A DNA stretch of 64,000 nt. It comes from Amphiscolops sp. MND2022 (Eukaryota). The DNA is taken from contig OZ076409.1 in NCBI GenBank assembly GCA_964187785.1, forward strand, positions 4,714,001 to 4,778,000. Direction: 5' to 3'. Below, piece by piece: positions 41,471 to 44,224 of the stretch. Position numbers and translations under genes: made by a program. Every line of letters starts with the position of its first letter. Position 1 is the stretch's first letter. The notes beneath the pieces were generated by a model that saw only the letters and a list, made by a program, of their open reading frames with translations, was not told where the DNA came from and did not search any database.

Positions 41471-42730
41471 ATGAATAATGATTATTGCTTGCAGAGCGGC
41501 TTATGGAGTGACACACAGAGTAACTTACAGGGCTATAGAAATAATGATCAAGGAGTTAGCACAGGAGTTGGCACAGGTGATGGAGCTGGCGCGGGAGCTG
41601 GCACAGGAGCCAACAAACTGTATTGGTATCAGAAAACACAACTTTATAAAGTAATCACAAATCCTATGTTTATTGCATATTTAATTATATTTATAGGTAT
41701 TATTGTTGTAATATATTGGAATTATATTCGCCCCATGTCCTTTAAAAAAATTTATAAAAAACTACAACAATTTGAAGGGTTCAAATACTCTCATCTGACA
41801 AACCAGGAAAGAGAGGCTACAATCGAAGAATCCCCACACACAGCATCCCCACACAATAATTCCCACTTCATAATTTATGGTAGTAGTGGCTCTGGGAAGA
41901 CAAGTTTTTTAAAGCATTATTTAGCGATAGCTAACGCCCGAAATCAAAGAAATTACGTAGTTTTCGGGCGAGATGAATGTGAGTTTCCCTCTCAAAATTT
42001 TGTACCACTACTGCAGTTGGAGAAGGTTAGTATTGCGGAGCTTTGCAAACAACTTGCTAATAAAATTGTTGTACTGGATGATGCAGGTGCATACAAGAAC
42101 CTCAAAACAAAAGTAGAAGACTTATTTAGATATGGTAGACATTTGGGGATTCAAGTGATATACCTTGCTCACTATGCAAAGGATGTTCTTCCAGTCGTGA
42201 GGGAAAATTGCTTCAAAATATGCTTAACAATTAATAACCCAGATAACTTCTTCGAGTCGATAGTACAAACTTATGCAATCAAAGACGCAAAAGCTGACGC
42301 AGTTAATGGGCTTAATTGGAAATACTACCGGGATCAGTTAGAATTTGGTATTATTGAACTGGACACAAGGAGTCATAAATACAAGATTCTAAACAACAAG
42401 TACAAGTTAATTTATGATTCGAGCAAACGAAGTGAGTGGGGTCCAGAACAACTCGTTGCTTATGAAAGTTACTTTTTCACTGGTGATGAATACAACAAAT
42501 TGAAGATATTCTTAGAGGCAATGTCCGACCAAACAATTGAAATAACACCACACAACATAGCTTATTATTATGTAGCCTATTGCAAACAAAATAACATTAA
42601 AGTGAATGAATCCAAAATAGACAACTACGTTGAGCGTATGCAAAAACCACTAATTAGTGACTCAGTTAAAGAGGGCTTCAAGAACTTAATTTATGAGCAT
42701 GCAAAAAGTTTTACTAAAAATAAGCTATGA
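41471..42730 (+). CDS. A32/FtsK-like ATPase 1 with N-terminal transmembrane helix
   Basis: TM helix FIAYLIIFIGIIVVIYW; Walker A GSSGSGKT; Walker B IVVLDD; Arg-finger FRYGRH; VRENC. Confidence 0.85.
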   Translation: MNNDYCLQSGLWSDTQSNLQGYRNNDQGVSTGVGTGDGAGAGAGTGANKLYWYQKTQLYKVITNPMFIAYLIIFIGIIVVIYWNYIRPMSFKKIYKKLQQFEGFKYSHLTNQEREATIEESPHTASPHNNSHFIIYGSSGSGKTSFLKHYLAIANARNQRNYVVFGRDECEFPSQNFVPLLQLEKVSIAELCKQLANKIVVLDDAGAYKNLKTKVEDLFRYGRHLGIQVIYLAHYAKDVLPVVRENCFKICLTINNPDNFFESIVQTYAIKDAKADAVNGLNWKYYRDQLEFGIIELDTRSHKYKILNNKYKLIYDSSKRSEWGPEQLVAYESYFFTGDEYNKLKIFLEAMSDQTIEITPHNIAYYYVAYCKQNNIKVNESKIDNYVERMQKPLISDSVKEGFKNLIYEHAKSFTKNKL

Positions 42731-42767
42731 ACTTCGTAAATACAGCCTAGCTGGCTTCGCATAATGT

Positions 42768-43100
42768 TAAGTGATTATTTAGTGATTATTTAGTGATTAT
42801 TTAGTGATTATTTAGTGATTAGTGATTATTTAGTGGAACCTTAGTGATTATTTAGTGATCTCTAAATTTCTCTAAATTTCTCACTAAATCACTAAGGTTT
42901 CACTAAGAGCATTATTTTCACTAAATTTCACTATATTCTCTAATCTTAGAGAAATAAAATACTCTTAGAGATTCTTAGAGATTCTTAGAGATTCTTAGTG
43001 ATTTAGTGAAATTTGCTTAGTGAAACCTTAGTGATTACATAGTGATACTGAGAGGTATTTAGAGGTATTTAGTGAAACTTTAGTGATTTTTTACTAAATA
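42768..43100. repeat. Array of direct and inverted TTAGTGA/TTAGAGA repeats
   Basis: (TTTAGTGATTA)n, inverse TCACTAA blocks and (TTAGAGATTC)x3 between the two ATPase genes. Confidence 0.85.
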
Positions 43101-43111
43101 ATACTAAATAA

Positions 43112-44224
43112 ATGAATTGCTTAATTTGTAATAAAAGTAGTGAAAAAAGTTTATGTGATGATTGCTCTAGTAAAAAAAGATGTAAAGACTGTGAAACTTT
43201 GAAGAATTGTAATACTTTTTATTCATACAAAAATGGCAGAACGTACTCTTCATGCAAAGTGTGTTTTAATAAAAAGGTGAGGTGTGAATTTTGTAATAAG
43301 GAATTAAATAAAAGTTATTTAAGGTCACACATTAAAAAACAACACTATAATCAACAGTATAATCAACAATATAATTATAATCAGCATACTGGGGGCGGGG
43401 CTCTGTATGATTTACTTCCGCATGGCTATTCGCGACAGCTATCACGAGAGCTACAGCGGGAGTTCCCGCATGGCTATTCGCGAGGCACCCCTTCACACAG
43501 TAATAATAATAATAATGTGGGTGCTAACGCGGGAGCTAATGCTAATAACGGTGTGCAGAGCTTCGTGAATAGCCCTGCGGGATCTAACGCGAAAGCTATC
43601 GCTAATGATGATAATGCGGGAGCTAACGCGAACGAAACTAATAGAACATTAATAGTTGGCCCATCATTTTGTGGTAAGACTCATTTGTTGTTGAATAAAT
43701 TACGATTGATTCGTTTGGAAGATCCAGAGAAACAAATTCGTATCATTACAAGGAGTCCGGAACAATATGAGAATATTGATATGCAAGGAATAGAAGTGGA
43801 AGAAAATGTGGGGGATTTGGAAGAGTATAGGGGATGTTGTGTAGTATTTGATGATATGTTAGACTCCAACCAGAAATTGATTGATCCATTTTTTACTAGG
43901 GGAAGACACAAATCTTGTGATGTTTATTATTTATGTCAGAGTTATTTTGATGCACCAAAAAAGACAGTTAGAAACAATAGTAATATCATAATTTTATTTC
44001 AACAAACACTGAAAGATGTAGAACATATTCATAGGGACATATCAGGTTTTGATATGTCTTATGAGGAATTCAAAAGTTTGTGTAGAGAAGCATGGAACGA
44101 AAAATTCAACTACCTTTTAATAAACAGATTGGAAGATAAAAATGGGAGTAGGTACAGGATTTGTAATGAATCTAATCCAAATTACAAGATCTTTAATCCA
44201 CAAACTGATCCTTTAAGTAATTAA
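43112..44224 (+). CDS. A32/FtsK-like packaging ATPase 2 with N-terminal Cys-rich zinc fingers
   Basis: Multiple CxxC plus a C2H2 finger (CEFC..HIKKQH); Walker A GPSFCGKT; Walker B VVFDD; FTRGRH..YLCQSYF..TVRNNSN. Confidence 0.92.
   Translation: MNCLICNKSSEKSLCDDCSSKKRCKDCETLKNCNTFYSYKNGRTYSSCKVCFNKKVRCEFCNKELNKSYLRSHIKKQHYNQQYNQQYNYNQHTGGGALYDLLPHGYSRQLSRELQREFPHGYSRGTPSHSNNNNNVGANAGANANNGVQSFVNSPAGSNAKAIANDDNAGANANETNRTLIVGPSFCGKTHLLLNKLRLIRLEDPEKQIRIITRSPEQYENIDMQGIEVEENVGDLEEYRGCCVVFDDMLDSNQKLIDPFFTRGRHKSCDVYYLCQSYFDAPKKTVRNNSNIIILFQQTLKDVEHIHRDISGFDMSYEEFKSLCREAWNEKFNYLLINRLEDKNGSRYRICNESNPNYKIFNPQTDPLSN

Follow-up and report, generated by a model that had tools for sequence, protein, structure and literature searches.

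A Polinton from Amphiscolops sp. carrying a second packaging-type ATPase that is predicted to be membrane-anchored

The closest described relatives of the element presented here are the Polintons or Mavericks (Polintoviricetes), including adintovirus-type elements with G-R-H ATPases. To our knowledge, no Polinton virion has been seen so far. The Polinton literature, in its accessible parts, mentions one packaging ATPase per element. One question about motors of the A32/FtsK type in Polintons, virophages and giant viruses is how they attach to the site of packaging. This report describes an intact, multi-copy Polinton in a stretch of 64,000 nucleotides from Amphiscolops sp. MND2022 (assembly GCA_964187785.1, contig OZ076409.1, positions 4,714,001 to 4,778,000). 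The whole stretch is called the window below, and all coordinates refer to it. The element shares with other Polintons a size of 15 kb, long inverted ends, a 6-bp target duplication, a protein-primed B-family DNA polymerase (pPolB), an RVE integrase, a double jelly-roll (DJR) capsid protein, a probable penton and protease, and one packaging motor, here named ATPase 2. It differs from them in adding a second, anchored ATPase (ATPase 1), a zinc-finger fusion on the native ATPase, and the string TAAATG at every gene start.

Further systems resemble ATPase 1 in part. Virophage ATPases of the Sputnik and mavirus type share with it a His sensor, the G-R-H finger, its best profile scores and a common branch in three of four trees. 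The virophage ATPases that were examined are soluble (0/105 anchored), single and encoded beside virophage capsid genes, whereas ATPase 1 is anchored, ends in a helical domain and is found in a setting with a Polinton-type capsid. The packaging vertex of PRD1 (the P9 ATPase, P6 and P20/P22) also couples a membrane-tied motor of A32/FtsK type to a protein-primed linear genome of about 15 kb, and P9/P6 on P20/P22 is a precedent for a membrane-nucleated packaging vertex (PMC4267777, accessible text). PRD1 differs in using one soluble ATPase and separate membrane proteins, whereas the predicted anchor of the present element is fused to its second ATPase. FtsK, TcpA, TrwB and the inovirus pI/Zot-type ATPases are membrane-anchored FtsK-HerA motors as well and were found as structural matches at Z 10-13. 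Compared with FtsK and the coupling proteins, ATPase 1 is nearer in sequence to viral A32, is much shorter and has a single N-terminal helix.

ATPase 1 is proposed to be an acquired DNA pump, predicted to be active and membrane-anchored, that works at a membrane step of particle assembly; we give this reading about an even chance. The features on which the argument draws are the following.

32820..48325, no strand: intact Polinton/Maverick, 15,506 bp, termini AGTAGT ... ACTACT
41471..42730, + strand: ATPase 1, A32/FtsK family, predicted membrane-anchored, His sensor, 419 aa
41663..41719, + strand: predicted transmembrane (TM) helix of ATPase 1, residues 65-83, followed by a helical stalk
41879..41902, + strand: Walker A of ATPase 1, GSSGSGKT, residues 137-144
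42068..42172, + strand: Walker B VVLDD (200-204), G-R-H finger (222-224) and sensor His234 of ATPase 1
42425..42727, + strand: C-terminal helical domain of ATPase 1, residues 319-419, kept in near and many distant kin
42731..43111, no strand: tandem-repeat spacer between the ATPase genes, 381 bp, 11- and 10-bp units
43112..44224, + strand: ATPase 2, Polinton-type packaging ATPase, Gln sensor, 370 aa
43112..43345, + strand: Cys-rich zinc-binding module of ATPase 2, C2H2-like finger, residues 1-78
43346..43639, + strand: low-complexity linker of ATPase 2, variable in length, in frame throughout the listed relatives

A first-pass annotation, made by a model from the letters alone, had described two tandem A32/FtsK-family open reading frames (ORFs) at this position. 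Both are indeed present on the + strand and both match Pfam Pox_A32, ATPase 1 above the cut-off (E 2.3e-7) and ATPase 2 slightly below it (E 2.5e-4). Walker A and Walker B were correctly read in both. The same annotation gave both an R-x-G-R-H motif, of which the G-R-H finger is truly shared (Arg in 21/21 aligned ATPase 1 rows). The leading Arg is not general, since ATPase 2 reads T-R-G-R-H, and R220 in the R-Y-G-R-H of ATPase 1 (220-224) is Arg in only 5 of the 21 rows. ATPase 1 has the Walker A, Walker B, arginine finger, polar sensor and RecA-like fold of the FtsK-HerA/A32 ATPases.

The conservation of ATPase 1 was examined at two depths. Among 3753 candidates, 264 relatives were found, and the best 120 (65-94% identical) were compared together with the window copy. 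In these 121 near copies, the catalytic positions are K143 in 119, D203 in 121, D204 in 120, R223 in 121 and His234 in 120. The predicted TM helix (Kyte-Doolittle 19-mer 2.5) had been noticed before, and a membrane-like segment recurs in 121/121 near copies, against 0/121 copies of ATPase 2. The frequency of the top residue is 0.91-0.95 in anchor, stalk, core and C-terminal domain and 0.60-0.77 in two linkers, and indels are in frame and restricted to the linkers. Absence or decay of ATPase 1 in sister copies was looked for and neither was seen; motifs and anchor are kept. Relatives of the element's ATPases lie on ENA contigs up to 1.16 Mb, which, like a neighbouring Ty3/gypsy element, points to a eukaryotic host, presumably an animal.

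More distant kin were collected by a profile search of 1.84 billion representatives, which gave 285 matches, 150 of them listed and mostly fragments. The resulting alignment holds 21 rows, 18 of them distant, with 22-47% identity to the protein in the window. All 21 rows agree at D203, D204, R223, H224, H234, R244 and N246, and the 20 that extend to Walker A all have its Gly-Lys. An N-terminal membrane-like segment was present in 16 of 18 distant kin tested, 44-74 residues ahead of Walker A in the 15 measured. No such anchor was found in 194 ATPases of virophage, Polinton and nucleocytoplasmic large DNA virus (NCLDV) type. All 21 members match Pox_A32, and the Atlas neighbours of ATPase 1 are packaging ATPases of Preplasmiviricota. 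By these alignments, ATPase 1 belongs to a separate and old family of FtsK/A32 ATPases with a predicted single-pass membrane anchor, which is apparently undescribed.

Other collections added little to this family. A further homologue search returned near copies almost exclusively. Viral contigs yielded no loci for ATPase 1 or for close relatives of ATPase 2; a metagenome scan gave five Walker-A-only matches, none extending beyond the P-loop, and a family match was absent from all 49 loci that a pattern scan of GTDB had picked out. In a phage collection, ATPase 1 had one weak Zot-type match (E 0.5) and ATPase 2 no match, and a PDB sequence search returned P-loop-only matches. For the C-terminal domain, neither Pfam nor PDB gave a match with E below 0.06. 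Nine clusters (P0300, P0320, P0341, P0351, P0379, P0382, P0392, P0418 and P0441) hold distant ATPase 1 relatives that nearly fill contigs of 1.1-1.8 kb, as if these were transcripts, assemblies broken at repeats or small segments.

In a structural model of ATPase 1 built from the deep alignment (predicted local distance difference test, pLDDT, 73.8), anchor and stalk make up one long helix, the core is modelled with confidence, and the C-terminal domain is helical. Among solved structures, the packaging NTPase B204 of STIV2 matches the model best (E 1.6e-7, Z 14.0, root-mean-square deviation 3.2, 171 residues aligned), tied with VirB4, HerA and TcpA at Z 13-14. These neighbours bear on a different role, in which ATPase 1 would be a coupling-protein-like DNA translocase (compare FtsK, TcpA and inovirus pI) that moves the element's DNA across the nuclear envelope, a vesicle or the cell surface when the element enters a cell, leaves it or spreads to another. 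The succession of TM helix, stalk and motor is that of FtsK and the coupling proteins, and among viral FtsK-like ATPases a TM domain has been described for filamentous phages (PMC11703096, accessible text). The sequence nevertheless points to packaging ATPases of A32 type, both in its Pox_A32 matches and in its Atlas neighbours, and a single TM helix is present with no channel partner evident in the element. We regard such a translocase as quite unlikely.

The sensor residue requires separate comment. In the accessible text of PMC11703096, the sensor of the FtsK-HerA/A32 superfamily is given as a polar residue, mostly glutamine. ATPase 1 has His234 (IYLAH) where ATPase 2 has Gln276 (YYLCQ), as the first-pass annotation had pointed out; a decoy that interferes with the A32 of a helper virus was one of its proposals. 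Under an account that reads His as the sign of a decoy, ATPase 1 would be a catalytically dead decoy or scaffold, or a neutral passenger. His in a superfamily that mostly has Gln speaks for this account; its invariance at 22-47% identity, alongside Walker A, Walker B and the arginine finger, speaks against it, as do indels that are in frame and confined to linkers. Virophages provide a further argument. When seven viral loci were fetched by the family motif, an ATPase was found in L006 alone (7483-12392), a virophage contig by its Sputnik-type capsid and penton in Pfam, and its sole ATPase has a His sensor. The first ORF of L006 is, judged from its motifs, probably serine-recombinase-like. A motif scan of 121 loci then gave 105 virophage-pattern ATPases with a His sensor on 104 distinct contigs, and for 32 of these ATPases the flanking sequence retrieved includes a virophage capsid gene; having been chosen for His, they demonstrate that such ATPases exist and not how frequent they are. 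None of the 105 lies in a two-ATPase locus or has an N-terminal anchor. Judged from these alignments, His is the normal sensor residue of the ATPase 1 family and no lesion. Because it is invariant there and present in sole virophage packaging ATPases, it is no mark of a dead decoy, and a decoy reading based on it is not supported. No loss of catalytic residues that would point to a pseudoenzyme was found among the aligned sequences, all motifs being conserved. A dead decoy or a passenger is highly improbable. More generally, His appears as the normal sensor in one branch of A32/FtsK ATPases and is not to be taken as inactivation.

ATPase 2 has the motifs of an ordinary packaging motor: Walker A GPSFCGKT (183-190), VVFDD, T-R-G-R-H (262-266) and YYLCQ. 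Its best 120 relatives and the window copy have K189 in 120/121 and Q276 in 118/121. No hydrophobic segment was found in the protein (maximum 0.73). It matches 12/12 Polinton ATPases at 99-119 bits, and these align with its core only. These data support well that ATPase 2 is the native, soluble FtsK/A32 packaging ATPase of the element, orthologous to those of other Polintons. The Cys-rich/C2H2 module that had been reported at its N-terminus was confirmed and covers residues 1-78, with weak matches to Pfam zf-C2H2 (E 0.027) and to the phage endonuclease family PHROG 2340 (E 0.007). The linker had been called Asn/Ala-rich, which describes its second part; its first part is rich in Gln, Tyr and Asn, and its length ranges from 50 to 122 residues among relatives. 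An artefact of frameshifting or merged ORFs was considered for the fusion and rejected, since the module is fused in frame in 109 of 120 listed relatives. The extension is a lineage-specific addition, with a likely role in binding DNA or genome ends.

The same module could be taken to mean that the roles are swapped or split, with ATPase 1 as the motor and ATPase 2 as a zinc-finger subunit for genome recognition or loading. The module was gained by ATPase 2 and kept in nearly all listed relatives, and His-sensor ATPases are the sole motors in virophages. ATPase 2, however, keeps its catalytic motifs throughout and is the ortholog of the only ATPase of other Polintons. We consider a swap improbable.

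Where did ATPase 1 come from? The two ATPases of the element are barely similar in BLASTP (E 0.1), and a profile-profile comparison (hhalign) relates them at 97% over 124 columns with 22% identity. A recent tandem duplication was rejected on the pairwise E value of 0.1 and because each gene has far closer relatives elsewhere. Trees were built with subsets of references fetched by motif (12 Polinton, 105 virophage-pattern and 77 NCLDV-pattern ATPases); they are unrooted, have no outgroup, and leave out beta-type Polinton, Polinton-like virus and tectivirus ATPases. ATPase 2 groups with the Polinton ATPases with support of 95, 97/94, and 87 without the motif columns. In the trees of 47 rows, the ATPase 1 family joins the virophage ATPases with support of 90 and, in the most careful one, 94/96, and this branch still has support of 90 after removal of the motif columns that had been used to fetch the references. 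In none of the four trees does ATPase 1 group with the Polinton ATPases. Against NCLDV A32, which falls in separate clades, the family scores a median of 30 bits, as compared to 40 for virophage ATPases. Sequence comparison thus favours an origin of ATPase 1 in a virophage-like or other small DNA virus over a recent duplication.

ATPase 1 and ATPase 2 have been inherited together, as is well supported by their distribution and divergence. The size of the longest contig was used as a key for shared contigs, a proxy for a common contig and not for adjacency. At least 41 keys are common to 162 ATPase 1 and 133 ATPase 2 entries, where 0.04 would be expected. After 4 of the 41 pairs were dropped as ambiguous or short, the distance matrices of the two proteins correlate with rho 0.777 in the 37 unambiguous pairs and the window (0/2000 permutations). 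The contigs of one sequencing run with a 0.09 share are short and bridge nothing. The statement that Polintons usually have one packaging ATPase held in 12/12 other fragments examined. These IMG/VR Polinton fragments (4.0-17.4 kb, some partial) each have one ATPase of the ATPase 2 type, 230-281 aa from stop to stop, without zinc module and without anchor. It was also checked whether two ATPases are the norm for the clade: the two-ATPase layout is the rule within the family of this element, and outside it none was found among the 12 fragments. No two-ATPase Polinton is described in the accessible text of 10.64898/2026.06.19.733378, PMC10748475, PMC11131425, 10.1101/2025.04.19.649669, PMC8502044, 10.64898/2026.10.13.758929, PMC11161782, PMC11296320, PMC4028283, PMC3671162 or PMC9952930, a literature scope that lies outside gene tables in supplements, Repbase and most subscription papers.

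The gene starts of the element are uniform. All 11 long genes and the 74-aa ORF at 47147 start at TAAATG (33485-47605), mostly in the form AATAAATG. This context is found at 32 of 541 ATGs in the whole element, at 0 of 78 ORF starts in 12 other Polinton loci and at 0 of 9 ORFs to the right of the element. Because ATPase 1 shares this start with the capsid genes, it is placed in the same expression class. TAAAT is the initiator of intermediate and late genes in vaccinia virus (PMC6211774, accessible text). The element may need the cytoplasmic polymerase of a poxvirus-like virus, or a helper virus of that kind.

A helper virus would also open another role for ATPase 1, that of an active or partly active competitor on factory membranes that captures or jams the A32 site of a helper giant virus to the benefit of the element or the host. 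The late-type initiator lends this indirect weight, the affinity of ATPase 1 leans towards virophages, the element already owns a normal motor, and giant-virus packaging occurs at a membrane (PMC11703096, accessible text). Yet ATPase 1 has no special likeness to NCLDV A32, as the bit scores and clades above indicate; its core and C-terminal domain (0.91-0.95) show no fast change of an arms-race kind when set beside the ATPase 2 core (0.95), and no helper virus is known for the host. We rate a competitor of this kind as unlikely.

In the membrane-anchored pump reading, ATPase 2 would package the genome and use its zinc module as an aid in DNA binding. ATPase 1, tethered to a membrane by its N-terminal anchor, would form a ring on the cytosolic side and would pump or hold the genome there during assembly of the element's own particles. 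It may work as a separate ring or be docked onto ATPase 2, and would combine in one chain the roles that PRD1 splits between P9 and the membrane proteins P20/P22. The uniform TAAATG starts suggest that this assembly step might be cytoplasmic, with transcription in the hands of a poxvirus-like helper. A fuller version is possible though doubtful. It would make the element an animal-type Polinton that is hyperparasitic on a poxvirus-like virus, has captured a virophage-related membrane-anchored pump and packages with two ATPases at a membrane (possibly an inner membrane). It would be the first such Polinton and would carry the first located member of an undescribed membrane-anchored A32 family.

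Several observations weigh against these proposals. TAAATG starts are found in 68 of 399 ORFs of virophage loci, and TAAATG overlaps the poly(A)-signal-like AATAAA in DNA that is AT-rich, so that the helper virus is a hint only. In the trees, long branches meet in the grouping of ATPase 1 with virophages, and a 50-row tree lacking four divergent ATPase 1 members leaves the family unplaced (backbone support 15). In approximately unbiased (AU) tests, a topology that unites ATPase 1 with ATPase 2 is not rejected (p 0.148, 0.244 and 0.095), nor, accordingly, is an ancient duplication as the source of ATPase 1. Within the best-120 lists, 1 of the 19 most divergent ATPase 2 relatives shares an ATPase 1 contig. 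The distant ATPase 1 kin lie on metagenomic contigs of 0.9-7.7 kb; because these are short, their two-ATPase setting is uncertain, and they may be neither beside a second ATPase nor in Polintons. As regards an inner-membrane virion, ORF236 is the sole protein of the element besides ATPase 1 with a membrane-like segment, which is little for such a virion.

What makes the element useful is that a two-ATPase Polinton offers a small, defined pair of proteins for testing how packaging motors are coupled to membranes. The poxvirus-type start signal on every gene makes dependence on a helper virus testable. The anchored second motor, kept by sister copies, hints at a membrane step in the life cycle that is undescribed for Polintons.

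The remaining features of the element are as follows.

32814..32819 (left) and 48326-48331 (right), no strand: target-site duplication TCATAT, 6 bp
32820..33464, no strand: left terminal inverted repeat, 645 bp, differing from the right arm at 4 positions
34301..35011, + strand: ORF236, hydrophobic stretch, hydropathy 2.19
35134..39003, + strand: presumed protein-primed B-family DNA polymerase, 1289 aa, a homologue of the large ORF in other Polinton loci
40536..41447, - strand: RVE integrase, head to head with ATPase 1, PF00665, E 3e-11
45873..46886, - strand: probable penton, ORF337, a homologue of the ORF that protease and capsid genes flank in other Polinton loci
47144..47605, - strand: probable maturation protease, ORF153, homologous to ORFs in 8/12 Polinton loci
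47681..48325, no strand: right terminal inverted repeat

Polintons have AG-rich ends and a 6-bp target-site duplication. Each terminal inverted repeat of the present element contains a 17-bp unit repeated six times (33028-33134 and 48011-48117). The long reading frames are all open, and the element encodes a DJR major capsid protein (Pfam PF21738, E 6e-22). The 1289-aa ORF has homologues (E to 1e-130) in the large ORFs that adjoin the integrase in other Polinton loci. We take it to be pPolB, an assignment that relies partly on motifs; Pfam gave no direct polymerase match, only an Endonuclease_7-like zinc domain. The names penton and protease are likewise our assumption from position and motifs. 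In the middle of ORF236, a hydrophobic hairpin is flanked by coiled regions, and the protein matches PHROG 26676 weakly (E 0.012). Between the protease and penton genes lies the 74-aa basic ORF (46923-47147, - strand), which overlaps the protease stop and is possibly a small core protein. ORF180 (45301-45843, - strand) has a Cys-containing N-terminus and an amphipathic, basic middle that may resemble adenovirus protein VI or the membrane-active proteins of adintoviruses.

To the right of the Polinton, a Ty3/gypsy retrotransposon occupies 51311-58321. Its pol is split over several frames, a dUTPase domain follows the protease (PF00692, E 1e-5), and no pair of long terminal repeats was found within the window. 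Further on, a GC-richer stretch at 60666-62800 (- strand) holds two host-side ORFs (353 and 313 aa), of which one matches C2H2 weakly, and is probably another mobile element.

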